Of a stretch of 38,542 nt of DNA, positions 4,053 to 38,542 are shown one piece after another (the stretch's first letter is position 1; each line of letters opens with the position of its first letter). A model generated the notes under the pieces. That model searched no databases. It was not told where the DNA came from and worked only from the letters and a program-made list of their open reading frames with translations. Both the position numbers and the translations under genes were made by a program. The stretch is from a virus (Duplodnaviria; Heunggongvirae; Uroviricota; Caudoviricetes): IMG/VR virus record IMGVR_UViG_2531839531_000011. One strand, given 5' to 3'.

Positions 4053-4252
4053 ACAAAAAGACTTGGTTTCGCGCATACATGTGGGCGCTGGTATGCGTCC
4101 TCATTTCTATCATTCTGTATGCAGGACTACTCCCCCGAATGATTTCATCAGACAGCTCCTTCCTGGTATTGCTGGGCATTTTCATTGCCATGCTGTACCC
4201 GGCAGGCGTTGTTCGCCTTTTCAGTAAGTACATCAAGGAAATCAAACAATGA
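4049..4252 (+). CDS. Small two-helix membrane protein (67 aa)
   Basis: Two hydrophobic segments (WALVCVLISIILYAGLL and FLVLLGIFIAMLYPAGVV); ATGA overlap with SPFH gene. Confidence 0.55.
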   Translation: MNKKTWFRAYMWALVCVLISIILYAGLLPRMISSDSSFLVLLGIFIAMLYPAGVVRLFSKYIKEIKQ

Positions 4253-5079
4253 AGAAATTCAGACTCTTTCAGATTATCCCGCTTTTTGCCGCCATCCTGC
4301 TGGTTGGTTGCGATCGCGTTGAGCCAGGTAATGTGGGCATCAAAGTCAACAAACTGGGCGACGACAAAGGCGTCGGTGAAGTGGTTGGCGTTGGCCGCTA
4401 CTGGACAGGCTGGAATACAGAGGTTTACATCTTCCCGACCTTCAAACAAATGAAGACCTACGATGAGCCGTTCAGCTTCCAGATGAGTGACGGCACAACC
4501 ATCGGCTATCACATCGGTGTGGCCTACAAGGTTGATCCATCCAAAGTTACCACAGTGTTTCAGACCTACCGCAAAGGCGTGGATGACATTACCGACACCG
4601 ACCTGCGCCAGAAGATCGCCGATGCACTCAACCGGCTGGCCAGCAAAATGACCACCGATAAGTTTATCGACGGTGGTAAGTCTGAACTGCTGGATTCAGC
4701 ACTTAAAGATATTCAGGAAGAGATGACCCCCATCGGCATTCAGGTCATGAGCCTCTCTTATGTCGGTAAACCGGAATATCCGCCAACCGTTATCGACAGC
4801 ATTAACGCCAAAGTCACGGCAAACCAGAAAACCCTGCAACGTGAACAGGAAGTCAAGCAACGCGAAGCTGAAGCCAACATGCTGCGCGCAGAAGCTGCCG
4901 GACAGGCCGATGCCATTCGCACAAAAGCCCAGGCTGAAGCCGACGCCATTCGTTTACGCGGCGAAGCTCTGCGCCAGAATCCCGGCGTTATGGAGCTGGA
5001 AGCGATCAACAAATGGAACGGCACGCTGCCGCAATACATGACCAGTAACACCGCTGTTCCGTTCGTTCCCGTGAAGTAA
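4249..5079 (+). CDS. SPFH/Band-7 (stomatin-prohibitin-flotillin-HflK/C-like) lipoprotein
   Basis: 276 aa; signal peptide with lipobox LLVGC; central SPFH-like region; C-terminal Ala/Glu/Gln-rich coiled-coil (EAEANMLRAEAAGQADAIRTKAQAEADAIRLRGEA). Confidence 0.7.
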   Translation: MKKFRLFQIIPLFAAILLVGCDRVEPGNVGIKVNKLGDDKGVGEVVGVGRYWTGWNTEVYIFPTFKQMKTYDEPFSFQMSDGTTIGYHIGVAYKVDPSKVTTVFQTYRKGVDDITDTDLRQKIADALNRLASKMTTDKFIDGGKSELLDSALKDIQEEMTPIGIQVMSLSYVGKPEYPPTVIDSINAKVTANQKTLQREQEVKQREAEANMLRAEAAGQADAIRTKAQAEADAIRLRGEALRQNPGVMELEAINKWNGTLPQYMTSNTAVPFVPVK

Positions 5080-5130: not shown

Positions 5131-5307
5131 GTATGCCGTTCTCACAAAAAAACCGCTTGCCATGCCGCAATCAGCCAGGTTACATTTCCGCTGCACCTCA
5201 TAAAACGGGTGCCGGGATTCTCAACCTGCTGACAAACGAAGCGCACAACCGCGCCAGCGGTTTTTTTGTGCGTACTGTATTGCCACGTCTTTTTCGCATC
5301 AGAATTA

Positions 5308-5386
5308 TGGTGGGGCGTACGGGGCCGACTTCGGTCGGGCCGGTTTCTTCGTTTGCCGGTGTTGAGAACCCCGTACGTCTCGCCAC
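5308..5386 (+). ncRNA. Candidate structured RNA element: long-range stem (GGTGGGGCGTACGGGG pairing with CCCCGTACGTCTCGCCACC) enclosing a UUCG-tetraloop hairpin
   Basis: Complementarity seen by eye in a ~320-bp region with no credible ORF; strand and function unknown. Confidence 0.25.
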
Positions 5387-5449
5387 CCCGAGATTCTCAA
5401 CTCTGGTTGGTGAGTATCCAAAAACTCACAAACGAAGAGGCCAAACACC

Positions 5450-9023: not shown

Positions 9024-9983
9024 ATGAAAATTTGTATCGACGACGGCTCCACCAACATCAAGCTGGCATGGACTGAGAACGGCGAACGCCGCAACGCCAT
9101 CAGCCCGAACAGCTTCAAGTCGGAATGGTCTGCGCCGTTCGGTGGCACGCAGCCCGCAAACTACATGCTTGATGGCGTGCGCTATGGTTTTGATCCGGTC
9201 AGCGATCGCTTTGTCCAGACGACCGACACGCAATACCAGTACAGCGATGTGAATGTCATTGCCATTCATCACGCGCTGGTCAAATCAGGTATCACACCAC
9301 AGGAAGTGGATGTGGTTGTCACCCTGCCACTGAGCGAGTATTTCGACACAAACGCCCAGCCGGATATGACCAACATCAACCGCAAAAAAGCGAATGTTAT
9401 GCGCCCGGTGGAGTACCAGAACGGTGAGGCATTCACTATCCGTAACGTGCGGGTTATGCCTGAATCCATTCCGGCTGGCTTTAAAGCACTGGCTGACATG
9501 AGTCCGTTTGAATCCCTGCTGATTGTGGATTTAGGCGGAACCACGCTGGATGTGGCAAAGGTTCAGGGACAACTGGCAGGTATCAGCCAGGTGTTTTGCG
9601 ATCCACACGTAGGCGTTTCCCTGATGGCCGATGCAGTACTCTCGGTGATGGCCGCTAACGGTATGCGTACCAGTCACCACATCGCCAATACCATTATCGA
9701 ACATCGCCATGATGAAGCCTGGCTGCGCCAGCACATCCACAATGACGCGCATTACGCCAGCCTGATGGCGGTTATTCGTGAAAAGGAAGAAACACTGAAA
9801 CAACGCGTGATCCGCGCGCTGGCGGGTTTTTCGGGTTACGGGCGGGTGATGGTTGTCGGTGGCGGGGCGGAGATTGTGGCACCCGCTATCCGCGAAGCCT
9901 GCGGAGTTAATGCGACTTTCATCGCGGACGGGGTGCCACAGTTTGCTCTGGTTAAGGGGCTGTACGCAATGGACAAGGAGTAA
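9024..9983 (+). CDS. parM: ParM/StbA-like actin-fold partition ATPase
   Basis: 319 aa; N-terminus MKICIDDGSTNIKLAW and downstream blocks closely resemble recalled plasmid R1 ParM; DLGGTTLD phosphate motif. Confidence 0.8.
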   Translation: MKICIDDGSTNIKLAWTENGERRNAISPNSFKSEWSAPFGGTQPANYMLDGVRYGFDPVSDRFVQTTDTQYQYSDVNVIAIHHALVKSGITPQEVDVVVTLPLSEYFDTNAQPDMTNINRKKANVMRPVEYQNGEAFTIRNVRVMPESIPAGFKALADMSPFESLLIVDLGGTTLDVAKVQGQLAGISQVFCDPHVGVSLMADAVLSVMAANGMRTSHHIANTIIEHRHDEAWLRQHIHNDAHYASLMAVIREKEETLKQRVIRALAGFSGYGRVMVVGGGAEIVAPAIREACGVNATFIADGVPQFALVKGLYAMDKE

Positions 9984-9987
9984 ACCA

Positions 9988-10299
9988 ATGACGACTCCAA
10001 CCAGACGGATAAGTTTCTATCTGAAGCCCGCCGCCGTCAAGAACGAAGGTGAAGCATGCGCCTGGCTGGACAGCCTTACACCAGAAGCGCGCAAAAGCGG
10101 CCAACGCGTGGCTTTTCTGGCCGGGCTGGCACTTCTGAAAATGAATCCGGCAGAGGCTTACCGACTGGCTGCATGGGCTGATGATGAAGCGTTATCAGTG
10201 ACACAAACCAGGACAGAACGCCCCGCGTCACAGCCAGTATCAACCGCACAGATAACCAGTCAGATGGCCGGAAATATCCGGGCGTTATTTCCCGAATAA
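9988..10299 (+). CDS. parR: ParR-like DNA-binding adaptor
   Basis: 103 aa directly after parM with AAGGAG RBS; AFLAGLAL and C-terminal NIRALFPE resemble recalled R1 ParR. Confidence 0.55.
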   Translation: MTTPTRRISFYLKPAAVKNEGEACAWLDSLTPEARKSGQRVAFLAGLALLKMNPAEAYRLAAWADDEALSVTQTRTERPASQPVSTAQITSQMAGNIRALFPE

Positions 10300-10362
10300 C
10301 ACAACATCAGGGCGCATCCGCCCTGATGACTTTAACCCGGGAACATAAACAAGGGGGACACA

Positions 10363-10698
10363 ATGCAACACATTGACAGAGAAAAAGCGCAGCGACTGAT
10401 TGAGCGGATGGAAGCGCTGGCGAAAGAAGAAAATGTCAACATCCAAAAAATAGCTGAATGTGGCCAGATAGTTCTTCGTCGTGAAAAAGACCTCAAACAA
10501 CTGATGTCTGGCGAAACCAGCAAAACATGGACTTCAGGTGAGGAGACGATTTATTGCAGCTTCTGCAATAAATCCCAGTACGAAGTCACAAAGGTGATTG
10601 CCGGACCGTCTGTTTACATCTGCAATGAGTGCGTTGATTTGTGCAATGAAGTTATCAGGAGAGAAGTGACAGACCATGAAGAAAAAACGCATGAATGA
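10363..10698 (+). CDS. Stand-alone ClpX N-terminal-type C4 zinc-binding domain protein
   Basis: 111 aa; C-terminal block [38 protein letters not shown] matches the ClpX zinc-binding domain signature. Confidence 0.7.
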
Positions 10699-10864
10699 CG
10701 AATTTGACGGCTTTTAATTTTATCGGGGCGCACTGTCGCCCTGCATGGAGAAAAACAATAAAAAAGATGAATAACTGCTCATGTCAGACGCGCTGCGGGC
10801 AAGTCTGGCACCCTGCCCTGTCTCCGCAAAGGCTGTTGTCTTAACACGACAGAGTATGCCAGCA

Positions 10865-11272
10865 TTAAATATAATCTTCTTCGTAGTCGCTGATTAATTC
10901 ATTGCCATAATCAGACAGCAATTTCAAAGCAAAGGTAACTTCCTCAAGGGTAGCTATCCCCATTGCTGAAAACACCGTTAATTTAACCAGCAGCAGGGAG
11001 TTTGAAAGTTCGGAAGAGTTCATCATTAAAAATATTGATGCAGCCTGAAAAGCTGTGCGTTTATTCCCATCATGAAAGGCATGAGCCTTGGCTATACCAA
11101 TCAAATACATAGCAGCCAGAGCATGAATATCATCAACCCCTTCATAGTAGTGTAGTGTCCTGACGCGATTTAAAGCACCTTCAAGTAGCCCGTCATTGGC
11201 ATTTCCGCTCTGGGGTAAAGTTTCAGCATGGATACGTTCTACTTGTTCTTTTGACAAAAACACTATGTCCAT
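10865..11272 (-). CDS. doc: Doc (death-on-curing) Fic-family toxin
   Basis: 135 aa; Fic-type motif HAFHDGNKRTA; start overlaps antitoxin stop (TGATG). Confidence 0.85.
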   Translation of the reverse strand: MDIVFLSKEQVERIHAETLPQSGNANDGLLEGALNRVRTLHYYEGVDDIHALAAMYLIGIAKAHAFHDGNKRTAFQAASIFLMMNSSELSNSLLLVKLTVFSAMGIATLEEVTFALKLLSDYGNELISDYEEDYI

Positions 11273-11628
11273 CAGTTATCCTCAAGCTTTTTAATGATAT
11301 CCGCATGTTTTTCTCTTGTACGCTTCATTGCATCTTCAAAAGACAATCCTTTTTTTCTCTGTGCGACAAGAGCTGGATGACGTTTTTCCAGATCTCTCAC
11401 TGCATTTATTAAGAGTGGTTGCTTCATTTTGTTTATTTGATCCCGCAGTTTTTTGGTTTTGCCAAGGACAGCCCGTATTTCAGGACTAAGATCAGAACCA
11501 GCAAGAACAACATCCTTCCCTCCCTGCGCCGTGATAACGACACTGCCACCGGAAGAAAGGTAATCCAGAATTTCACTCAGGTTCTCACGAAATTCATCAT
11601 CAGTTACAGTTTTCATATTCATTTCCAT
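11272..11628 (-). CDS. phd: Phd/YefM-like antitoxin candidate (start may be a downstream Met)
   Basis: Small acidic-C-terminus protein immediately upstream of and coupled to doc. Confidence 0.6.
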   Translation of the reverse strand: MEMNMKTVTDDEFRENLSEILDYLSSGGSVVITAQGGKDVVLAGSDLSPEIRAVLGKTKKLRDQINKMKQPLLINAVRDLEKRHPALVAQRKKGLSFEDAMKRTREKHADIIKKLEDN

Positions 11629-23362: not shown

Positions 23363-25729
23363 ATGAGTACCACAACACGAAAATTTAAAACCGTTATCAC
23401 CGATACGGGTGCAAAAAAATTAGCTCAGGCAGCCGCGCCAGATGGTAAGCCTGTCCGCCTGACTCATATGGCCGTGGGCGACGGTGGCGGCACGTTGCCC
23501 ACACCAGACAGTAAGCAGACCCGTCTGGTGCATGAGGTGTGGCGACACACTGTTAATCGCGTCATCCTGGACGCAACACATCAGAACCGCATTATTGCGG
23601 AGCTGGTTATTCCTCCTGAAACGGGCGGATTCTGGATCCGGGAAATTGGTGTATTTGATGAGCACGGCGATTTAATCGCGGTGGGCAATACTGCCGAAAG
23701 TTACAAGCCAGCCGTTGCCGAAGGGTCCGGTCGTGCACAAACGTTTCGCACCATTCTGACCGTATCCAGCACTGCCACCGTGGCGCTTACCGTGGATAAC
23801 ACCATGGTGATGGCCACAGTGGATTACGTGGATGACAAACTGAAAGAGCATGAACGGTCACGACATCACCCGGACGCCTCGCTGACCGCAAAAGGCTTTG
23901 TTCAACTCAGTAGCGCCACTAACAGCGTGTCTGAAACGCAGGCTGCAACGCCGAAAGCAGTAAAGGCAGCATATGACCTGGCTAATGGCAAATACACCGC
24001 ACAGGACGCTACCACTGCGCGGAAAGGGATAGTTCAGCTCAGTAGCGCCACCAACAGCACGTCTGAAACGCAGGCTGCAACGCCGAAAGCAGTAAAGACC
24101 GCGTATGATCTTGCTAACGGTAAATATACTGCGCAGGATGCCAGCACGACGCGAAAAGGCCTTGTCCAGCTCAGTAGCGCCACCAACAGCACGTCTGAAG
24201 CGCAGGCTGCAACGCCGAAAGCAGTAAAGGCCGCGTATGACCTTGCTAGCGCAAAATATACCGCTCAGGACGCCACGACGACACAAAAAGGGATAGTCCA
24301 GCTTAGTAGTGCCACCAACAGCACGTCTGAAACACTGGCCGCGACACCGAAAGCGGTTAAGGCGGTAATGGATGAAACGAACAAGAAAGCGCCTTTAAAC
24401 AGTCCTGCGCTGACCGGAACGCCAACAACGCCAACTGCGCCAAAAGGGACTAATAATACTCAGATCGCAAGCACGGCTTATGTGATGGCCGCGATTGCCG
24501 CACTTGTAGACTCGTCGCCTGACGCACTGAATACGCTGAACGAGCTGGCGGCGGCGCTGGGCAACGACCCGAATTTTGCGACCACCATGACTAACGCGCT
24601 TGCGGGTAAGCAACCGAAGGATACCACCCTGACGGCGCTGGCCGGGCTTGCTACTGCGGCAGACAGGTTTCCGTATTTTACGGGGAATGATGTCGCCAGC
24701 CTGGCAACTCTGACAAAAGTCGGGCGGGATATTCTTGCGAAATCGACCGTTGCCGCCGTTATCGAATACCTCGGTTTACAGGAAACGGTAAATCAGGCTT
24801 CTGGCGCATTACAGAAAAACCAGAACGGCGCAGATATTCCGGGAAAAGATACCTTCACCAAAAATATTGGGGCCTGCCGCGCATATAGCGCATGGCTGAA
24901 TATTGGTGGCGATAGTCAGACCTGGACAACTGCGCAATTTATTTCGTGGCTGGAGAGTCAGGGGGCATTTAACCATCCTTACTGGATGTGCAAAGGCTCA
25001 TGGGCTTATGCAAATAATAAGGTCATTACAGATACAGGTTGCGGAAATATTTGTCTTGCAGGTGCTGTGGTGGAAGTTATTGGCACTCGCGGCGCAATGA
25101 CCATACGCGTTACTACGCCGAGCACGTCCAGCGGCGGCGGAATTACTAACGCTCAATTCACCTATATTAATCATGGTGATGCTTATGCTCCTGGCTGGCG
25201 ACGAGACTACAACACGAAAAACCAGCAGCCTGCATTTGCTTTAGGGCAGACAGGAAGCAGGGTTGCAAATGATAAAGCTGTTGGCTGGAACTGGAATAGC
25301 GGTGTTTATGATGCAGATATCAAAGGCGCAACAGCATTAATACTCCACTTCAATATGAATACGGGGAGTTGCCCTGCTGTACAGTTCCGCGTGAATTACA
25401 GGAACGGCGGTATCCTTTATCGTTCAGCGCGTGATGGTTATGGCTTTGAAGATAACTGGTCAGCGTTTTACACCACAACCTACAAACCCTCTGCGGGGGA
25501 TGTTGGTGCATATACCAAAGCGGAATGTAACTCAAAGTTTATTACAGGTATTCGTCTGGGCGGTCTGTCATCTGTTCAGACATGGAATGGTCCCGGCTGG
25601 TCTGACAGGTCAGGTTATGTCGTTACGGGTTCAGTTAACGGAAACCGTGATGAATTAATTGATACAACTCAGGCAAGGCCAGTTCAGTATTGCATTAATG
25701 GAACGTGGTATAACGCAGGGAGTATTTAA
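23363..25729 (+). CDS. H: Tail fibre protein (P2 gpH-like) in the expressed orientation, with internal tandem repeats
   Basis: 788 aa; conserved N-terminus; ends ...INGTWYNAGSI before the chaperone gene. Confidence 0.9.
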   Translation: MSTTTRKFKTVITDTGAKKLAQAAAPDGKPVRLTHMAVGDGGGTLPTPDSKQTRLVHEVWRHTVNRVILDATHQNRIIAELVIPPETGGFWIREIGVFDEHGDLIAVGNTAESYKPAVAEGSGRAQTFRTILTVSSTATVALTVDNTMVMATVDYVDDKLKEHERSRHHPDASLTAKGFVQLSSATNSVSETQAATPKAVKAAYDLANGKYTAQDATTARKGIVQLSSATNSTSETQAATPKAVKTAYDLANGKYTAQDASTTRKGLVQLSSATNSTSEAQAATPKAVKAAYDLASAKYTAQDATTTQKGIVQLSSATNSTSETLAATPKAVKAVMDETNKKAPLNSPALTGTPTTPTAPKGTNNTQIASTAYVMAAIAALVDSSPDALNTLNELAAALGNDPNFATTMTNALAGKQPKDTTLTALAGLATAADRFPYFTGNDVASLATLTKVGRDILAKSTVAAVIEYLGLQETVNQASGALQKNQNGADIPGKDTFTKNIGACRAYSAWLNIGGDSQTWTTAQFISWLESQGAFNHPYWMCKGSWAYANNKVITDTGCGNICLAGAVVEVIGTRGAMTIRVTTPSTSSGGGITNAQFTYINHGDAYAPGWRRDYNTKNQQPAFALGQTGSRVANDKAVGWNWNSGVYDADIKGATALILHFNMNTGSCPAVQFRVNYRNGGILYRSARDGYGFEDNWSAFYTTTYKPSAGDVGAYTKAECNSKFITGIRLGGLSSVQTWNGPGWSDRSGYVVTGSVNGNRDELIDTTQARPVQYCINGTWYNAGSI
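23894..24375 (+). repeat. Tandem 132-bp (44-aa) tail-fibre repeats, about 3.6 copies (KG-VQLSSATNS-SETQAATPKAVKAAYDLANGKYTAQDATT)
   Basis: Repeats visible in both the H translation and the DNA. Confidence 0.75.
24759..24784. other. gix/hix-like inversion crossover site (TTATCGAATACCTCGGTTTACAGGAA) inside H
   Basis: 26 bp; inverted copy at 27686..27711 differs at two positions; resembles the Gin gix consensus. Confidence 0.7.
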
Positions 25730-25731
25730 TT

Positions 25732-26265
25732 ATGATGCACTTAAAAAACATTACTGCTGGCAATCCTAAAACAAAAGAGCAATACCAGCTAACAAAGCAA
25801 TTTAACATCAAATGGCTTTATTCAGATGATGGAAAAAACTGGTATGAGGAACAAAAGAATTTCCGGCCAGACACATTGAAAATGGCCTATGACCATAACG
25901 GCGTTATTATTTGTATTGAAAAGGATGTTTCAGCAATTAATCCGGAAGGCGCAAGCGTCGTTGAATTACCTGATATTACAGCAAATCGCCGTGCTGATAT
26001 TTCGGGTAAATGGATGTTCAAAGATGGCGCAGTGATAAAGCGAACTTATACCGGGGAGGAACAGAGGCAGCAGGCAGAGAATGAAAAGCAAAGCCTGTTG
26101 CAACTTGTCAGGGATAAAACCCAGCTATGGGACTCACAGCTACGGCTGGGCATCATTTCCGACGAGAATAAACAAAAATTAACCGAGTGGATGCTCTATG
26201 CGCAGAAAGTCGAATCCACAGACCCCTCCAGCCTGCCAGTAACATTTCCCGAACAACCTGAATGA
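25732..26265 (+). CDS. G: Tail fibre assembly chaperone (P2 gpG-like), expressed orientation
   Basis: 177 aa; N-terminus [22 protein letters not shown] shared with the inverted copy. Confidence 0.85.
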   Translation: MMHLKNITAGNPKTKEQYQLTKQFNIKWLYSDDGKNWYEEQKNFRPDTLKMAYDHNGVIICIEKDVSAINPEGASVVELPDITANRRADISGKWMFKDGAVIKRTYTGEEQRQQAENEKQSLLQLVRDKTQLWDSQLRLGIISDENKQKLTEWMLYAQKVESTDPSSLPVTFPEQPE

Positions 26266-26293
26266 GACAAGGCCCGATAGCGGGCCTTAATTT

Positions 26294-26824
26294 TTATTCA
26301 GGCTTTTGTGGCCATTCAGGATTTGCCCTATCCACACGGCTGACCAGAACACTGTAGCGTTCCCATGCTTCCAGTCGTGTGCGTTCCTCGTCTGTTGCCA
26401 TATTCAACCTGACAGCGCGTTCCAGCGGCTGGATGACTGATTCAGCTTCGGAAAGCAATGCGGCCTTTTGTGATTCGGCCTGTTGTTGCTGTTCGTCTGC
26501 CGTATAAATCCGTTTAACCACAGCTCCATCCTTAAACATCCACTTTCCTGAATCATCAGCGCGGCGGTTGGCTGTAATATCTGGAACCTCGACAACGCTA
26601 AAACCTTCGGGATTAAGCGTGGATGCATCTTTGGTGATGGCGACAATAATATTATTTGCATCGTAAACAATCTTTATTGTGTCTGGCTGAAAGTTTTTCA
26701 CTTCCTCATACCAGTTTTTACCGTCTTCTGTATATAACCAGATAACATCAAAATTCTTTGTTAGCTGATATTGCTCTTTTGTTTTTGGATTTCCTGACTT
26801 AATATTTTTTAAATGCTGCATCAT
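26294..26824 (-). CDS. Alternative tail fibre assembly chaperone, silent orientation
   Basis: 176 aa; paralogue of G on the opposite strand; convergent with G across a hairpin at 26270..26290. Confidence 0.8.
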
Positions 26825-27685
26825 TTACACCTGTGCGACGTTATACCATGTGCCATTGATGTATTTTTGTATTGGTCTGAAGATGGCTTCATCATCGCCA
26901 TCTACTTCACCAATGATTCTTAATCCGGTAATTGCGTGTCCGGCTTTTTCATAACGACCACCACGCGCCATCAATTGAACAACACGCGTACCCAGGCGAA
27001 CATCTTTTACATAGCGTGAATCAAAATTCCCCCAGTTGCTGGGCTGTATCTGACCGTTAACAGAAAATATTACCGAGTTATCTGTATTTCGCTGGCTATA
27101 GAAATGCCAGCCTGAATCATCACCAAGCTCTGCAACAGTTGGTCTTGATGAAGTGCCCCATAAATTAAACCCTACGTTCTTCGTGGAGTTGTTGGAGCTG
27201 GATAGCGAGAACTTTTTACTATCACCTGCCTGAATGTTTTTAAAAGCAATAGCCACTCCATTCTGAAAGCGGAATACTCGCTGACTATTAGCGTAAACAT
27301 CCAGAATACCATCACCATTCTGTTTAAATCCGGTATCATTATCACCAAGAACAATTGAGCTACCACCTAACGCATTCGTTGTACCAACTCCAAGACTGCC
27401 ATTAATGACGGCATTAACCAGAATATTCAGTGCATTCAATTTCAGCGTCATCAGGTCTTTTGTTGTGGTGCCCTAGCGGCTTCTCCATTTGAAATATTCA
27501 TTGCCGTTGTCGCCTGTTTCAAACCACATGAATGAATCAGTATCGCTGTCAGCATCATTTTTAAACCCAATCTTTGCCCAGTCAGTATTTCGAATCCAGG
27601 CAAGGATTGAGTCGTTTGCAAAAGTAAGCCCACCGGACAAGGTATCGCCATTCTTTTGCACCGCGTTCCTGGCCCTGTTTACCAT
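26825..27685 (-). pseudogene. Alternative tail-fibre variable domain interrupted by an in-frame TAG
   Basis: Two ORF pieces (27473..27685 and 26825..27451) in the same frame separated by an amber stop near 27473; ends ...INGTWYNVAQV like H. Confidence 0.6.
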
Positions 27686-27711
27686 TTCCTGTAAACCGAG
27701 GTTTTAGATAA
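27686..27711. other. gix/hix-like inversion crossover site, inverted copy (reverse complement TTATCTAAAACCTCGGTTTACAGGAA)
   Basis: Read directly. Confidence 0.7.
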
Positions 27712-27741
27712 TGGCGGTTTCTGGCCTGCATGGCATGATTT

Positions 27742-28356
27742 GTGCTTTTGGACGGGAGATTCAGCGTGCTGATTGGCTATGTAAGGGTATCAACAAATGA
27801 CCAGAATACAGACCTGCAACGAAACGCTCTTGTTTGTGCAGGATGTGAACAAATATTTGAAGATAAATTAAGCGGGACAAAGACAGACCGACCGGGATTA
27901 AAACGCGCTTTAAAGCGCCTTCAAAAAGGTGACACGCTGGTTGTCTGGAAACTGGATCGCCTCGGGCGAAGCATGAAACATCTGATTTCTCTCGTCGGGG
28001 AACTACGGGAGCGAGGGATTAATTTTCGCAGTCTGACCGACAGCATAGATACATCTTCTCCAATGGGGCGTTTTTTCTTCCACGTGATGGGTGCCCTGGC
28101 TGAAATGGAACGTGAATTAATTGTAGAGCGTACACTGGCCGGTCTGGCAGCAGCACGCGCACAAGGGCGCACAGGCGGACGTCGCCCGAAGCTGACAAAA
28201 GAACAGAATGAGCAAATAGCAAGGCTGATTAAAAACGGGCACGACAGAAAACAACTGGCAATAATTTACGGCATTGGTACATCGACGATTTATCGTTACC
28301 ACCCCGCAGGAGAATCAAGCGGAACAATTGAGAAGAGCAAACAAAATAACCGCTAA
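27742..28356 (+). CDS. Serine DNA invertase of the Gin/Cin/Pin/Hin family (probable GTG start at 27769, MLIGYVRVSTNDQ)
   Basis: Near-identical to recalled Gin over most of its length; catalytic-serine motif YVRVSTNDQ; C-terminal HTH. Confidence 0.9.
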   Translation: MLLDGRFSVLIGYVRVSTNDQNTDLQRNALVCAGCEQIFEDKLSGTKTDRPGLKRALKRLQKGDTLVVWKLDRLGRSMKHLISLVGELRERGINFRSLTDSIDTSSPMGRFFFHVMGALAEMERELIVERTLAGLAAARAQGRTGGRRPKLTKEQNEQIARLIKNGHDRKQLAIIYGIGTSTIYRYHPAGESSGTIEKSKQNNR

Positions 28357-33970: not shown

Positions 33971-34126
33971 AGCTTCAGCCCCTTGTATCCGTTAAATGAT
34001 TCGGCAACAATCATCACCCACCACGCGCGTAATCTCACCCCTGCGCCGTTCTCCCGCCACGGCGACAACAAAAAGCAGTAACCCACTCCGCACGCACATG
34101 CGACCATGCCGCACAGGGAGGGAAAG

Positions 34127-35236
34127 ATGACCGACACCACCATGCAATTGCTCAGTCAGAGCACAGACCCCGTGAAAATGCCGGATTTTGATATTCTCGC
34201 GGAGGGGGAAACGCTGTCCGGCGTGGCAGAGCGCCTGATGAGTCTGTCACTGACTGACAACCGGGGATTTGAAGCGGACCAGCTCACCATCACGCTGGAT
34301 GATGCGGATGGTCAGTTGCAGCTACCGCCACGGGGCGCGCGCCTGACGGTTCTCATTGGCTGGAAAGGAGAACCGCTGACAGAAAAAGGCACTTACATTG
34401 TTGATGAAATCGCTCACGAAGGACCGCCGAACAGGCTGACGGTTTCAGCCAGAAGCGCAGATTTTCGGGATGAATTTAACGTTAAACGTGAGGTGTCCTG
34501 GCATGATGTGACCGTTGAGCGAGTGGTATCCGCCATCGCTCATCGGTATGGTCTGAAACCGCAAATCAGCGAAATGCTGATGGATATCGAAATCGACCAC
34601 GCCGACCAGACCGAAGAAAGTGACATGTCCTTCCTTACGCGCATGGCGGAAATGCTGGGCGCAATCACCACGGTAAAAAGCGGTAATCTGTTATTCATCA
34701 TGCCCGGCGGTGGCGTGAACGCACAGGGCCAGCCGTTGCCATCGTTCGCCATCACACGCAGCAGCGGCGATCGCCATCAGTTCCGCATTGCTGACCGCGA
34801 GGCGTATACGGGGGTACGCGCTTACTGGCTTGATCTTAATTACGGGAAAAAGAAAAAAGTCAGCGTGAAACGCCGCAAACCGCCAAAACCCAAAAAGGAG
34901 AAAAGCAGCAGCCGTGAAGGTGATTATATGGAAGGCGCAGAAGGCAATGTGTTTGTGTTACGCAAGACTTATCAGAACGAGCAGGCAGCAAGACGCGCAG
35001 CAGCGGCAAAATGGCAGCAGCTACAACGCGGAGCCGCATCATTCTCCATCACGCTGGCGCGTGGACGCGCAGAACTCTATCCCGAAATGCATGGCACGGT
35101 GAAAGGCTTCAAAAGTGACATCGACAATCAGGACTGGATTATTGCAAAAGCTGAGCACACCATTGATAACAGCGGCTTTACCACACAGCTTGAGCTTGAG
35201 GCAAAAATCCCGGAATGGATAGCGGAAACAGAGTGA
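34127..35236 (+). CDS. D: Late control/tail protein D (P2 gpD-like); ORF extends to 34106, AGGGAGG RBS favours 34127
   Basis: Size and position immediately before ogr. Confidence 0.75.
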   Translation: MTDTTMQLLSQSTDPVKMPDFDILAEGETLSGVAERLMSLSLTDNRGFEADQLTITLDDADGQLQLPPRGARLTVLIGWKGEPLTEKGTYIVDEIAHEGPPNRLTVSARSADFRDEFNVKREVSWHDVTVERVVSAIAHRYGLKPQISEMLMDIEIDHADQTEESDMSFLTRMAEMLGAITTVKSGNLLFIMPGGGVNAQGQPLPSFAITRSSGDRHQFRIADREAYTGVRAYWLDLNYGKKKKVSVKRRKPPKPKKEKSSSREGDYMEGAEGNVFVLRKTYQNEQAARRAAAAKWQQLQRGAASFSITLARGRAELYPEMHGTVKGFKSDIDNQDWIIAKAEHTIDNSGFTTQLELEAKIPEWIAETE

Positions 35237-35278: not shown

Positions 35279-35539
35279 ATGTTCCGTTGTCCGCTTTGTG
35301 GCGCATCTGCCCGTATCCGCACCAGTCGTCCGGAAAATGATTCAAACACCGTGCGGCAAAAGTATTACCAGTGTAACAACCTGGAATGCGGCGTATGCTT
35401 CTCAACACTGGAAGCCTTCCATAAATTCACATCGAAACACGCCTCCGGCGTTCACTCATCAGAAGGTATTCCGTGGCATGAGCTGCCAGCTTCACACAGG
35501 GGAAACAATCAGATGAGTTTGCCTTTACCTCAGAATTAA
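35279..35539 (+). CDS. ogr: Ogr/Delta-family zinc-finger late transcription activator
   Basis: MFRCPLCGASARIRTSR...YYQCNNLECGVCF matches the recalled Ogr Cys4 pattern. Confidence 0.85.
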   Translation: MFRCPLCGASARIRTSRPENDSNTVRQKYYQCNNLECGVCFSTLEAFHKFTSKHASGVHSSEGIPWHELPASHRGNNQMSLPLPQN

Positions 35540-35627: not shown

Positions 35628-35813
35628 ATGTGGAAAGGCCCCGAGTCAACTTTAACGTTAACCCGAGGCCCTAACCATCTACCCTTAGCAAGTGATAGGT
35701 TAGCGCCTCCCCGAAAAAGGAGCAAGCGCTATGTCGCAAAAATCGCTTACGGCCATCACGTTCTGCGTGACGGCAATCCTCATCATCTGGATGCTGCACG
35801 GTTCGCTGTGTGA
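35628..35813 (+). CDS. Mok-like overlapping reading frame (modulator of hok translation)
   Basis: 61-aa ORF overlapping the hok-like start in another frame, as in hok/mok/sok loci. Confidence 0.4.
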   Translation: MWKGPESTLTLTRGPNHLPLASDRLAPPRKRSKRYVAKIAYGHHVLRDGNPHHLDAARFAV

Positions 35814-35871
35814 AATACGGATGAGCTTCTGGGGAGCGGAGTTTGCGGCGTTCTTACAGTGTAAGCAGTAA
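35731..35871 (+). CDS. Hok/Gef-family type I toxin (46 aa)
   Basis: MSQKSLTAITFCVTAILIIWMLHGSLCEIRMSFWGAEFAAFLQCKQ; hydrophobic helix plus SLCEIR signature; below ORF-track size cut-off. Confidence 0.7.
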   Translation: MSQKSLTAITFCVTAILIIWMLHGSLCEIRMSFWGAEFAAFLQCKQ

Positions 35872-35880
35872 GGAAACCGC

Positions 35881-35902
35881 GACGGGGGAGTAATCCCCCG
35901 TC
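35881..35902 (+). terminator. Hairpin GACGGGGGA-gtaa-TCCCCCGTC at the 3' end of the hok-like transcript
   Basis: 9-bp perfect stem read directly. Confidence 0.4.
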
Positions 35903-36048
35903 AATCAGTTGCCAGGATAAGGTCGATAAGGCATCCTGTCTCACTCTATACCAGCTAATCAATTGACACATATCAATAAAAAGCCTGATAAAATCAAAAT
36001 GTTTTGTTACAAATGTCAGCTAGTAGAGGGCCAAAGGAGGCAGATTAT

Positions 36049-36381
36049 ATGGCATTAATCAAATGTCCTGAATGCCAGAAAGAGGTGATCGATTCAGTAT
36101 TGTCTTGCCCTGCTTGTGGCAAACAACTGAAAAATCTTAAACGCTCATTTTTTGGAGAACTCATTAAGTGTTTTTTTATATTATTTAATGTTTTTATAAT
36201 CTACACGATTTGTATTGGGCTAAGAGAGGTGGGTGAAATAATAAACAACGCCACATCCGATGCCGAAAAAGCCGGTACAGTTATTGGTACGGGCTTAGGT
36301 TTAATTGCTATTGGAGGCTTATGGGTTATTGGCAATATCATTATCGGAAATTTAGTATTTCTTACTAAACCAAAGGGATAA
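36049..36381 (+). CDS. Zinc-ribbon (CPEC...CPAC) membrane protein, AT-rich cargo gene
   Basis: AGGAGG RBS before MALIKCPECQ; N-terminal Cys4 ribbon followed by two or three hydrophobic helices. Confidence 0.55.
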   Translation: MALIKCPECQKEVIDSVLSCPACGKQLKNLKRSFFGELIKCFFILFNVFIIYTICIGLREVGEIINNATSDAEKAGTVIGTGLGLIAIGGLWVIGNIIIGNLVFLTKPKG

Positions 36382-36385
36382 CAAA

Positions 36386-37279
36386 ATGAAAAATGTGATT
36401 ATTTCTATAGGCGCATCATTTATATCAATTAGTGTGCTACCTGCTCACGCAGCAACTGAGCATAATAACTTTAAGTCATCACTCCAGTGCCGAGCAATAG
36501 AAAATAATAAAGAAAGACTTTCTTGTTATGATAAGTCAATACAACCGACTCGAACGACAGTTGCTGAAAAATTCGAAAGCAGAGATCAATGCCCTGATGA
36601 GAAAGATGATGACAGACGTTTATCTTGTTATGACCGTTTTTTTTCTCCAACATTTACTCCGCCTGTAAGCTCAAAATCTAAAGTGAAACAGCTAGTAACA
36701 ACAGAGACTCAGCAACCAAATCTTTCTGAGATATCTAAATGTCGAGCAGAAAACGATAAAGAAACTAGAGTAAACTGCTACGATAAACTATTTCCACAGG
36801 AAAAAGCTACGCAATCTAAATCAAAATTAGAGAAAGCCACAGACTCAGGAAAATGGCACACATCCATTACTACATCGCCAATTGATGATTCGAAAAATGT
36901 AATTTTATCGTTAGAAAGTGATGATTATATAAGAACTCCATTTGGAGAAGCGGTTACCCCTACTCTGTTTATAGCTTGCCGAGAAAAGAAAACCGAAGTA
37001 TTTCTTAATTGGGATGTATATTTAGGCCTTGAACAAACCAGCATGCTGTATCGCCTTGATAAACAGAAAGCAGTTGAGCGAAACTGGCTAGTATCTACAG
37101 ATACAAAGGCTGTTTTTTATAAAGGCAATGACATTAACTTCATCAGAAAACTAGCCAACTCAAACAAAATGTATGCAAGAATAACCCCTTATAATGAAAG
37201 CCCTGTAAGTGCAACTTTCAATTTAAACGGCCTGTCAACCACGCTAAAACCGCTTCAAGAAGCCTGTAACTGGAAATAG
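36386..37279 (+). CDS. Secreted protein with three Cys-containing repeats (C-x10-R-L/V-S/N-CYDK/R) and a C-terminal domain, AT-rich cargo gene
   Basis: 297 aa; signal peptide ...VLPAHAAT; repeats at RLSCYDK, RLSCYDR, RVNCYDK. Confidence 0.6.
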   Translation: MKNVIISIGASFISISVLPAHAATEHNNFKSSLQCRAIENNKERLSCYDKSIQPTRTTVAEKFESRDQCPDEKDDDRRLSCYDRFFSPTFTPPVSSKSKVKQLVTTETQQPNLSEISKCRAENDKETRVNCYDKLFPQEKATQSKSKLEKATDSGKWHTSITTSPIDDSKNVILSLESDDYIRTPFGEAVTPTLFIACREKKTEVFLNWDVYLGLEQTSMLYRLDKQKAVERNWLVSTDTKAVFYKGNDINFIRKLANSNKMYARITPYNESPVSATFNLNGLSTTLKPLQEACNWK

Positions 37280-37309
37280 TATAAATCATGCGGCTAAGCC
37301 ACAATCACA

Positions 37310-37347
37310 GATAACACAAAGCCCGTGAAAACGGGCTTTGTGTTATC
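37310..37347. terminator. Strong bidirectional terminator: 16-bp perfect inverted repeat GATAACACAAAGCCCG-tgaaaa-CGGGCTTTGTGTTATC
   Basis: Read directly, just after the cargo genes. Confidence 0.6.
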
Positions 37348-37362
37348 TATAACTCGAAAATG

Positions 37363-37380
37363 TGGTCACTGCGTGGACAT
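37363..37380. other. Candidate attR core (gtggtcactgcgtggaca), direct repeat of 11..28
   Basis: 17/18 match to the sequence at the int 3' end; lies between cargo genes and host flk. Confidence 0.35.
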
Positions 37381-37546
37381 GCGCCGATACAAATCCTTTT
37401 ATATCAAAAAGTTAAATCAACATCTTTTTCATCAACAAGGATTTTCACGTTTGTGTTACCTGTATGAGACGAGAGTTAACCGGACAAGTGTGCCATAATC
37501 TCGCGGCCAGGCATACTTGCGAAGATTTCAGGTATAAGGATACGTA

Positions 37547-38542
37547 ATGATACAACCTATTTCCGGCCCTCCTCCTGGGCAACCACCAGGTCAGGGAGAT
37601 AACCTGCCGTCTGGCGCGGGCAATCAGCCTTTATCCAGTCAGCAACGTACTTCGCTGGAAAGCTTAATGACGAAAGTGACCTCACTGACGCAACAGCAAA
37701 GAGCAGAACTGTGGGCGGGTATCAGGCACGATATTGGTCTGTCGGGAGATTCACCGCTGCTTTCGCGTCACTTCCCTGCCGCTGAGCATAATCTGGCGCA
37801 ACGTCTGCTGGCCGCGCAAAAAAGCCATTCTGCCCGCCAGCTTTTAGCGCAATTAGGGGAGTATTTACGTCTGGGGAATAATCGTCAGGCGGTCACGGAT
37901 TATATCCGTCATAACTTTGGTCAGACGCCGCTGAATCAGCTCTCACCGGAGCAATTAAAAACCATTCTCACCCTGTTGCAGGAAGGGAAGATGGTTATTC
38001 CGCAACCACAGCAGCGCGAGGCGACCGACCGTCCTTTATTACCGGCGGAGCACAATGCGCTAAAACAGCTGGTGACCAAACTTGCGGCGGCAACGGGGGA
38101 ACCCAGCAAACAGATCTGGCAATCGATGCTGGAACTTTCCGGGGTGAAAGATGGCGAGTTAATTCCAGCGAAACTGTTTAACCATCTGGTGACCTGGCTA
38201 CAGGCGCGTCAGACGCTAAGCCAGCAAAATACGCCGACGCTGGAATCACTACAGATGACGCTAAAACAACCTTTAGATGCCAGTGAACTGGCGGCGTTAT
38301 CGGCATATATCCAGCAAAAATATGATCTTTCTGCGCAATCATCGCTTTCTTCTGCCCAGGCCGAGGATATTCTTAATCAGCTTTATCAACGGCGGGTTAA
38401 AGGGATTGATCCGCGTGTTATGCAACCGCTGCTTAATCCTTTTCCACCGATGATGGACACGTTGCAAAATATGGCAACGCGTCCCGCGCTGTGGATACTG
38501 TTAGTCGCGATTATCCTGATGCTGGTCTGGCTGGTTCGTTAA
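37547..38542 (+). CDS. flk: Host flagellar regulator Flk (C-terminally membrane-anchored)
   Basis: 331 aa; N-terminus MIQPISGPPPGQPPGQGDNLPSG and C-terminal hydrophobic anchor match my recollection of E. coli Flk. Confidence 0.75.
   Translation: MIQPISGPPPGQPPGQGDNLPSGAGNQPLSSQQRTSLESLMTKVTSLTQQQRAELWAGIRHDIGLSGDSPLLSRHFPAAEHNLAQRLLAAQKSHSARQLLAQLGEYLRLGNNRQAVTDYIRHNFGQTPLNQLSPEQLKTILTLLQEGKMVIPQPQQREATDRPLLPAEHNALKQLVTKLAAATGEPSKQIWQSMLELSGVKDGELIPAKLFNHLVTWLQARQTLSQQNTPTLESLQMTLKQPLDASELAALSAYIQQKYDLSAQSSLSSAQAEDILNQLYQRRVKGIDPRVMQPLLNPFPPMMDTLQNMATRPALWILLVAIILMLVWLVR

Follow-up and report, generated by a model that had tools for sequence, protein, structure and literature searches.

The two genes that lie between the hok/gef toxin gene and attR of a P2-like prophage are phage cargo (a moron) and not host core DNA, and the larger of their products belongs, judging from profile comparisons, to the VasI superfamily, in which it falls into a separate and large subfamily. 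The window, i.e., the whole stretch of 38,542 nucleotides that was analysed, is the P2-like prophage, with the integrase stop codon at position 1 and the cassette as the last cargo before attR. Two co-oriented genes between a hok-like locus and attR had been proposed by a first-pass annotation made from the sequence alone, and both open reading frames were found on the plus strand (Table 1). The pair is already present in databases, under RefSeq names and as the PHROGs families phrog_6586 (gene 1) and phrog_1848 (gene 2), both without assigned function, and a prophage moron is a familiar element. The prophage 'TagO' genes as a distinct, large, phage-borne branch of VasI appear not to have been described before, and the same appears to hold for their two fixed positions in P2-like genomes with interchangeable small membrane partners; literature searches on TagO/VasI in P2-like phages or on an ogr-att hotspot found nothing specific. 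A sizeable sister subfamily of TagO/VasI resides in P2-like prophages of Enterobacterales and not in T6SS clusters, a finding that corrects the name 'T6SS-associated protein TagO' widely given to prophage genes in databases. The ogr-attP interval is added as a cargo site of P2-like phages, and the cassette offers a compact two-gene, 1.3-kb E. coli system for probing the VasI/IalB fold in the periplasm.

Table 1 Features of the cassette and its surroundings, numbered by position in the window
Feature	Position	Strand	Remarks
Tail gene D	34106-35236
ogr	35279-35539		PF04606
hok/gef toxin gene	35731-35871		PF01848
Promoter-like element (putative)	35963-35994	+	TTGACA at 35963-35968; extended -10 TGATAAAAT at 35986-35994
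Small palindrome, candidate operator	36003-36013	+	TTTGT-N-ACAAA, directly past the -10
Gene 1	36049-36381	+	Predicted inner-membrane protein, 110 aa
Gene 2	36386-37279	+	VasI/TagO-family protein, 297 aa, predicted to be exported
Sec signal peptide of gene 2	36386-36451	+	Residues 1-22, read from the sequence; cleavage between AHA and A
Three C-x8-R-[LV]-x-C-Y-D-[KR] repeats	36488-36787	+	36488-36535, 36590-36637, 36740-36787
C-terminal beta domain, IalB fold	36848-37276	+	Residues 155-297
Hairpin closing the operon	37309-37348	+	Arms 37309-37326 and 37331-37348, 18 bp, 4-nt loop
Attachment core at attR, right edge of phage DNA	37426-37446 (about)	.	Genome matches and P88 attP
Host flk	start 37547		NF007987, 505 bits

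The first-pass annotation had recognised neither protein family. Gene 2, however, is a clear match to Pfam VasI/DUF3121 (PF11319), scoring 87.7 bits against a cut-off of 26.5 bits (E = 1e-24), and its residues 118-296 covered the profile from end to end (positions 1-184 of 184). TagO/VasI has been known as an accessory T6SS gene since 2009, and a 2026 review still gave its role as 'unknown'. Gene 2 is homologous at the Pfam level to the TagO/VasI proteins of V. cholerae (VCA0118) and E. coli Sakai (ECs_0222), and it shares their layout of signal peptide, C-x8-R-L-x-C-Y-D hairpin, beta domain and C-terminal C-x-W. Nevertheless, the RefSeq name of gene 2, 'T6SS-associated protein TagO', goes too far on the sequence evidence. 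On the equivalog model TIGR03360 gene 2 reached 72.8 bits, below the cut-off of 124.2 bits, and other phage-type members scored 39-57 bits, whereas the true TagO ECs_0222 scored 257.4 bits. In the opposite direction, a profile of the phage-type proteins gave ECs_0222 40.6 bits, compared with more than 165 bits for the 150 closest representative clusters. This profile matched at least 685 clusters at E ≤ 1e-30 and 5710 at E ≤ 1e-3, counted as 50% identity clusters in a library of 1.84 billion representatives. Identity between gene 2 and E. coli TagO was 22% over 205 residues. Unlike TagO, whose Sakai gene ECs_0222 adjoins clpV, gene 2 has extra hairpin copies, is prophage-borne, belongs with small membrane partners and is never found beside clpV or tssM. 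All relatives with enough surrounding DNA that were examined lay in P2-like prophages and none in a T6SS cluster. An assignment of gene 2 as a true T6SS TagO was rejected on the TIGR03360 score, the low identity and this lack of any relative within a T6SS cluster.

The T6SS and the tails of P2 are related contractile machines, which lends some appeal to a T6SS-related conversion, in which the phage protein would act on type VI secretion by the host or by a neighbour and would either replace or tune TagO, so that killing is altered, or shield the periplasm of the lysogen from T6SS attack. Such a role is also favoured by the Pfam family and the motif-plus-domain architecture common to gene 2 and TagO, and by the behaviour of V. 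cholerae VasI, which is required for efficient killing and not for Hcp secretion (PMC3166118). We consider it unlikely, given the distance from TagO in identity and in both profile directions and the fact that the gene always occurs with phage-specific partners.

Gene 2 starts 4 nt past the stop codon of gene 1. Its product carries the signal peptide that had been proposed for it, with a recognisable cleavage site and one hydrophobic segment, at the N-terminus; there is no lipobox. A regular-expression search matched the Cys motif three times and no more, at residues 35-50, 69-84 and 119-134, each of which is modelled as a helix-loop-helix. The copy number given by the first-pass annotation was therefore right, but not the spacing, which is C-x8-R (i.e., C-x11-C) and not C-x10-R. 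Homologues contain one, two or three copies, and the copy adjoining the beta domain is universal. The residues invariant across the family include C119, C131, C198 and C294, a pattern that would fit disulfides in a periplasmic protein. The C-terminal domain shows the beta-sandwich fold of IalB (invasion-associated locus B, PDB 3dtd), with which gene 2 shares 16% identity and which lacks the Cys hairpin. On the Pfam family IalB (PF06776), gene 2 scored 16.6 bits against a cut-off of 22.1 bits; for this reason the family assignment was rejected and only a fold relationship was kept. A search of the PDB by sequence profile returned nothing relevant, and a fold search of BFVD returned only uncharacterised phage proteins. 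The same fold was present there in virulent T4-like phages as well, so that it is not tied to lysogeny. Some relatives of gene 2 are fused to PG_binding_1 and TonB_C/TolA_C domains, which makes the periplasm, near peptidoglycan, the probable setting of the fold. One such protein, the VasI-PG_binding-TonB_C fusion P0201, was located on a short contig.

The open reading frame of gene 1 opens at TTG 36004, which was rejected as the start in favour of ATG 36049, because the latter has AAGGAGG 8 nt upstream, agrees with the 110-aa RefSeq and phage annotations, and matches the homologues, all of which begin with MAL(I/V). The N-terminal zinc ribbon followed by hydrophobic helices, as described in the first-pass annotation, was borne out: the ribbon is CPEC-x10-CPAC (C6, C9, C20 and C23), and two hydrophobic segments are centred on residues 42-53 and 84-97. 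Hydropathy placed TM1 at about residues 34-58 and TM2, which is glycine-rich (GTGLGLIAIGG), at about residues 79-104. The N-terminal part is basic, and the helices are joined by an acidic loop of 20 residues that contains SDAEKAG; TKPKG forms the C-terminal tail. A cytoplasmic ribbon and a periplasmic loop are predicted from the positive-inside rule. On the Pfam family Zn_Ribbon_1 (PF13240), gene 1 scored 24.5 bits against a cut-off of 25 bits (E = 2e-5). DrpB (YedR, NF038392) was rejected as a candidate for the transmembrane part, at 16.8 bits against a cut-off of 50 (E = 0.006). Homologues with 57-80% identity precede the VasI-like gene in Klebsiella, Enterobacter, Dickeya and P88. Among the E. 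coli, Klebsiella, Enterobacter and Dickeya copies, which share 47-80% identity, there is little or no variation in the four cysteines and in the loop motif DAE(K/R)AG.

The genetic context analysis of relatives revealed two positions in P2-like genomes. Position A has the order gpD, ogr, (hok), [Zn-ribbon gene], VasI-like gene and att, and the Zn-ribbon partner is usually present. Examples come from Klebsiella, Enterobacter and Dickeya and from many IMG/VR contigs, and their VasI-like proteins have one, two or three hairpins. Variants of position A occur in an E. coli prophage, in which the VasI-like gene is convergent with a gene for a Zn-ribbon-TM2-domain protein, and in a Salmonella prophage, in which the VasI-like gene stands alone. 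At position B, a cI-type repressor gene, the VasI-like gene and int lie on one strand, with no membrane partner; Pectobacterium has the order cI, a gene for a Flk_N tail-anchored protein, the VasI-like gene and int. One position B locus also carries a gene for an NsnB/AriA-like defence ATPase between the VasI-like gene and int. Defence genes were neighbours at a few loci only. From these two positions, the exported VasI-like protein is judged to be the constant element and the membrane partner to be exchangeable, and position B would fall within an operon transcribed in the lysogen. The cI-int interval is a classic site of lysogen-expressed exclusion genes. According to PMC13586616, the P2 defence hotspots include the integrase-att and integrase-primase intervals, and position B, in the cI-int interval, matches the latter; position A, on the ogr-att side, was not found among the hotspots described there. 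A scan of genome contigs found nine loci, all from Enterobacterales except one on a MAG contig labelled Planococcaceae, which was taken to be contamination.

We regard envelope-level exclusion of, or defence against, incoming phages as the most likely role of the pair, although its chances are put at somewhat less than even. This role is favoured because the family is prophage-borne, exported and patchily distributed, occupies a position in a lysogeny operon and has defence genes among its neighbours at some loci. Points against it are the small number of such loci, the occurrence of the fold in virulent T4-like phages and the lack of a PADLOC match. The first-pass annotation had suggested a pair of this kind acting on the envelope, or else a host-interaction factor. 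In our reading, the pair is a moron operon that P2-like temperate phages carry next to attP inside their genome, and it would be expressed in the lysogen from its own sigma-70-type promoter. The product of gene 1 would be a small inner-membrane protein whose C4 zinc ribbon faces the cytoplasm and whose two transmembrane helices are joined by a conserved periplasmic loop of 20 residues. That of gene 2 would be Sec-exported, periplasmic and probably disulfide-bonded, with one to three Cys-stapled helical hairpins ahead of a beta domain of the IalB/VasI fold. The exported protein would form the core unit and may act in the periplasm against the incoming phage, by hindering penetration of the tail, breaching of peptidoglycan or transfer of DNA. 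The membrane partner, which can be exchanged, would serve as anchor or regulator of the exported protein. If this proves true, the cassette would represent a new envelope-level defence on common E. coli and Klebsiella prophages.

Several known systems were compared with the cassette. Envelope superinfection exclusion proteins include T4 Imm and Sp, P22 SieA, HK97 gp15, T5 Llp and TP-J34 Ltp. These proteins are phage-encoded, small and membrane-bound or periplasmic, and they block the entry of other phages; an action of this kind is proposed for the cassette by analogy alone. The Serratia locus SDIC4, like the cassette, has two genes and encodes a small exported protein, which is its active component: SDIC4B, an exported protein reported to have a VasI-like fold, gave 10-200-fold phage protection alone, and SDIC4A was dispensable (bioRxiv 10.1101/2024.01.28.577318). 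This serves as a precedent for the proposed protective role. SDIC4 is found across Enterobacterales, and SDIC4B belongs to Pfam PF27224. Comparison of gene 2 with SDIC4B gave no BLAST match and an hhalign probability of 1.5%, SDIC4A had no similarity to the cassette proteins by BLAST, and no WYL/BrxR gene stands beside the cassette, whose neighbours are hok and attR. The PADLOC models had no meaningful match to gene 1 or gene 2. The moron loci of P2-like phages (old, tin and Z/fun, as well as the defence hotspots described by Rousset et al. 2022 and in PMC13586616) resemble the cassette in being AT-rich and patchy, and in having a fixed genome position and transcription signals of their own, which for the cassette are predicted. 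Unlike these loci, which have nucleic-acid targets, the cassette encodes proteins predicted to act at the envelope, and its ogr-attP position was not found among the hotspots described in the two papers.

Another reading is an abortive-infection or membrane-toxin module, in which gene 1 would encode a pore-forming effector, with the VasI-like protein as its sensor or restrainer, so that envelope damage by a phage frees the pore and the cell depolarises. The glycine-rich TM2 is compatible with this, as is the occurrence of small membrane proteins (TM2-domain and Flk_N tail-anchored) as alternative partners, and the cassette adjoins the hok/gef membrane toxin gene. However, the VasI-like gene has no membrane partner in many prophages, so that the partner cannot be the essential effector, and this arrangement seems quite improbable. 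A broader proposal, to which we likewise assign a rather small probability, is that the phage-type VasI-like proteins form a new class of periplasmic immunity: they would sense the penetrating tips of injection machines and block their passage across the periplasm, and the membrane partners would signal to the cytoplasm. The machines meant here are contractile or other, such as phage tails, tailocins and T6SS spikes, and the exchangeable partners are the Zn-ribbon-2TM, Zn-ribbon-TM2 and Flk_N anchor proteins. If true, it would give a first mechanistic handle on the role of TagO/VasI within T6SS clusters. A factor for host interaction or envelope fitness is of similarly doubtful standing. In that case the pair would be an IalB-like aid to adhesion or invasion, or would be associated with envelope stress or peptidoglycan, and would help the lysogen in the gut and not against phages. 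The Pfam score of gene 2 for IalB is below the cut-off, as given above, and the mechanism of IalB is itself unknown. Moreover, the family occurs in plant pathogens (Dickeya, Pectobacterium and Brenneria) and in environmental Enterobacterales, which shows that its occurrence does not depend on an animal host.

The base composition and the expression signals of the cassette were in line with exclusion or defence by an accessory phage operon. The GC content was 0.357 for gene 1 and 0.369 for gene 2, as against 0.552 for the backbone of structural genes, which upheld the low GC noted in the first-pass annotation, and it was low in each host lineage (0.36-0.47 in the cassette compared with 0.55-0.58). 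Both genes had dN/dS ratios of 0.15-0.45; purifying selection acts on them, so that they are functional genes, and their composition marks them as foreign in origin. A promoter-like element upstream of gene 1 was missed by a consensus promoter scan, because its spacer is 20 nt. In an alignment, the GATAAAAT block and the sequence downstream of it were kept in E. coli, P88 and Klebsiella; Dickeya and Enterobacter retained part of them. The palindrome was kept as TTTGTAACAAA in the copies of E. coli 500465-2, P88 and Klebsiella. The extended -10 TGATAAAAT and TTTGT-N-ACAAA were thus conserved from E. coli to Klebsiella, whereas the flanking DNA was not. This conservation indicates that the cassette has a predicted promoter of its own and possibly an operator. 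Transcription from the repressed prophage is suggested as well, the cI-int relatives lying on the same strand; a point against it is that the AT-rich cassette could be silenced by H-NS.

At the other end, thirty bases past gene 2, the operon is closed by a hairpin whose arms are 100% complementary (dG -31.1 kcal/mol, z -9.45). A perfect-stem terminator had been described there, and the perfect stem was found again; its length is 18 bp instead of the 16 bp given, and it has no U-tract, which is why a consensus terminator scan made no call at this site. In P88, three positions per arm differ and the pairing is still perfect, i.e., there are three compensatory pair changes, and the other cassette lineages each have a strong hairpin of their own at the same site. 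The structure is therefore under selection, and it possibly serves as a terminator, which may be bidirectional, or as a transcript stabiliser. A scan of the whole window against Rfam gave no match in or near the cassette.

These signals also bear on a role in the phage's own cycle, as an aid in lysis, tail penetration or release. Here the location of the cassette, directly past tail gene D and ogr, the activator of late genes, and the presence of the fold in virulent phages are offset by the promoter-like element, the atypical GC content and the alternative position in a lysogeny operon. Furthermore, the cassette is patchy in P2-like phages: it was present in six phage records and, by megablast of 35880-37540, in 237 of 5426 complete E. 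coli genomes. A role of this kind is very improbable.

The distribution and the boundaries of the cassette identify it as phage DNA. The remaining 5189 E. coli genomes lacked it, and prophage-free E. coli aligned only from position 37426 of the window on, that is, over the beginning of pdxB and the intergenic region that separates it from flk. The similarity of P88 attP to the window stops at about 37446, and these two limits together place the attachment core, which lies within the first eight codons of host pdxB; the reverse complement of 37426-37448 reads GTG AAA ATC CTT GTT GAT GAA, the start of PdxB. That the pair consists of conserved host genes of the flk-pdxB locus, the outcome that the first-pass annotation had named as counting against its reading, has adjacency to flk and nothing beyond in its favour and is almost certainly wrong; it was rejected because 5189 genomes lack the pair, because phage records contain it, and because its occurrences elsewhere on chromosomes invariably mark the end of a P2-like prophage. 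As expected of a moron, the cassette lies within the phage genome, is lacking in many related phages as well as in hosts free of the prophage, and combines an atypical base composition with a conserved -10 element of its own, part of the predicted promoter, and the selected hairpin. The earlier view of it as recently acquired, AT-rich phage cargo is supported by the small share of E. coli carriers and by the stand-alone phage record P88_4B11, in which the cassette sits amid phage genes, with ogr/hok as its neighbours at one end and int at the other.

The prophage was inserted within codons 1-8 of pdxB (window 37426-37448), the reverse complement of which reads as the PdxB start, GTG AAA ATC CTT GTT GAT GAA. 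Past these start codons, the pdxB reading frame in the window enters phage DNA and then stops. The annotation of strain NCCP 15734, which is near-identical, shows an intact pdxB of 1113 bp (39437-40549 of locus L020) directly after int, at the opposite end of the prophage.

Short repeats were found around the prophage ends and the att core. The 13-mer CACTGCGTGGACA was present at each end, with one copy located within the int 3' end (16-28) and the other on the phage side, ~50 nt from the att core (37367-37379); the attP region of phage P88 contains a near-match to the latter copy with one mismatch. CACTGCGTGGACA is possibly an arm-binding site for Int. Furthermore, the right arm of the large hairpin 3' of the cassette, TTTGTGTTATCTATA (37337-37351), reappears as TTTGTGTTACCTGTA just past the core on the host side (37450-37464), so that the att core is flanked by similar sequences. 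At the other end of the cassette, a TTTGT-N-ACAAA palindrome (36003-36013) directly 3' of the -10 element was kept from E. coli to Klebsiella, and its comparison with the sites of known regulators gave no match.

Related phages were also examined for the neighbors of the cassette. P88 carries two additional small genes in the interval between hok and the cassette (L002: 3777-4603), indicating that the ogr-att interval gathers further cargo; their products of 80 and 192 aa had no match in the family search. In the Pectobacterium prophages, the VasI-like gene is preceded by a gene for a 200-aa tail-anchored Flk_N-domain protein (L017: 6355-6957; L019: 6350-6952), which exhibited identities of 22-29% with parts of host Flk. 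The host Flk gene (37547-38542) happens to adjoin the prophage of the window. These associations may be coincidental, or may hint that VasI-like proteins and anchors of the Flk type are functionally linked. A BFVD search with me0c569d36092, the structure model of the window VasI-like protein, retrieved the same fold in uncharacterised proteins from three virulent T4-like phages (RB16, KP15 and Aeromonas phage 65.2) and from Vibrio phage VH7D (Foldseek E values of 1e-4 to 6e-8), showing that the IalB/VasI fold is recurrent among phages generally.

Other features of the prophage are listed below. In the early region, isrK and the C4 antisense RNA (together 5193-5390) are, by their sequence matches, a P1/P7-type antisense immunity element, here inside a P2-like prophage. 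The classic GpA-GpQ hotspot is occupied by cargo (9024-11628) that includes a ParM gene, which is unusual in integrating phages. The low-GC stretch at 25500-28356 (0.40-0.42), in which tail-fibre and assembly ORFs lie in opposite orientations, is probably an invertible host-range segment.

Further features of the prophage and their window coordinates
Feature	Coordinates	Strand	Match	Location
SPFH/Band 7 membrane-scaffold protein	4249-5079		PF01145, E 6e-31	Among early genes
isrK	5193-5267		Rfam, 62 bits, above gathering score	Early region
C4 antisense RNA	5303-5390		Rfam, 79 bits, above gathering score	Early region
ParM-type actin-like segregation protein	9024-9983			GpA-GpQ cargo
Small ClpX-type zinc-finger protein	10363-10698			GpA-GpQ cargo
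Doc of Phd/Doc toxin-antitoxin pair	10865-11272	minus		GpA-GpQ cargo
Phd of Phd/Doc toxin-antitoxin pair	11272-11628	minus		GpA-GpQ cargo
Serine invertase	27742-28356		Resolvase + HTH_7	Adjoins tail-fibre/assembly ORFs
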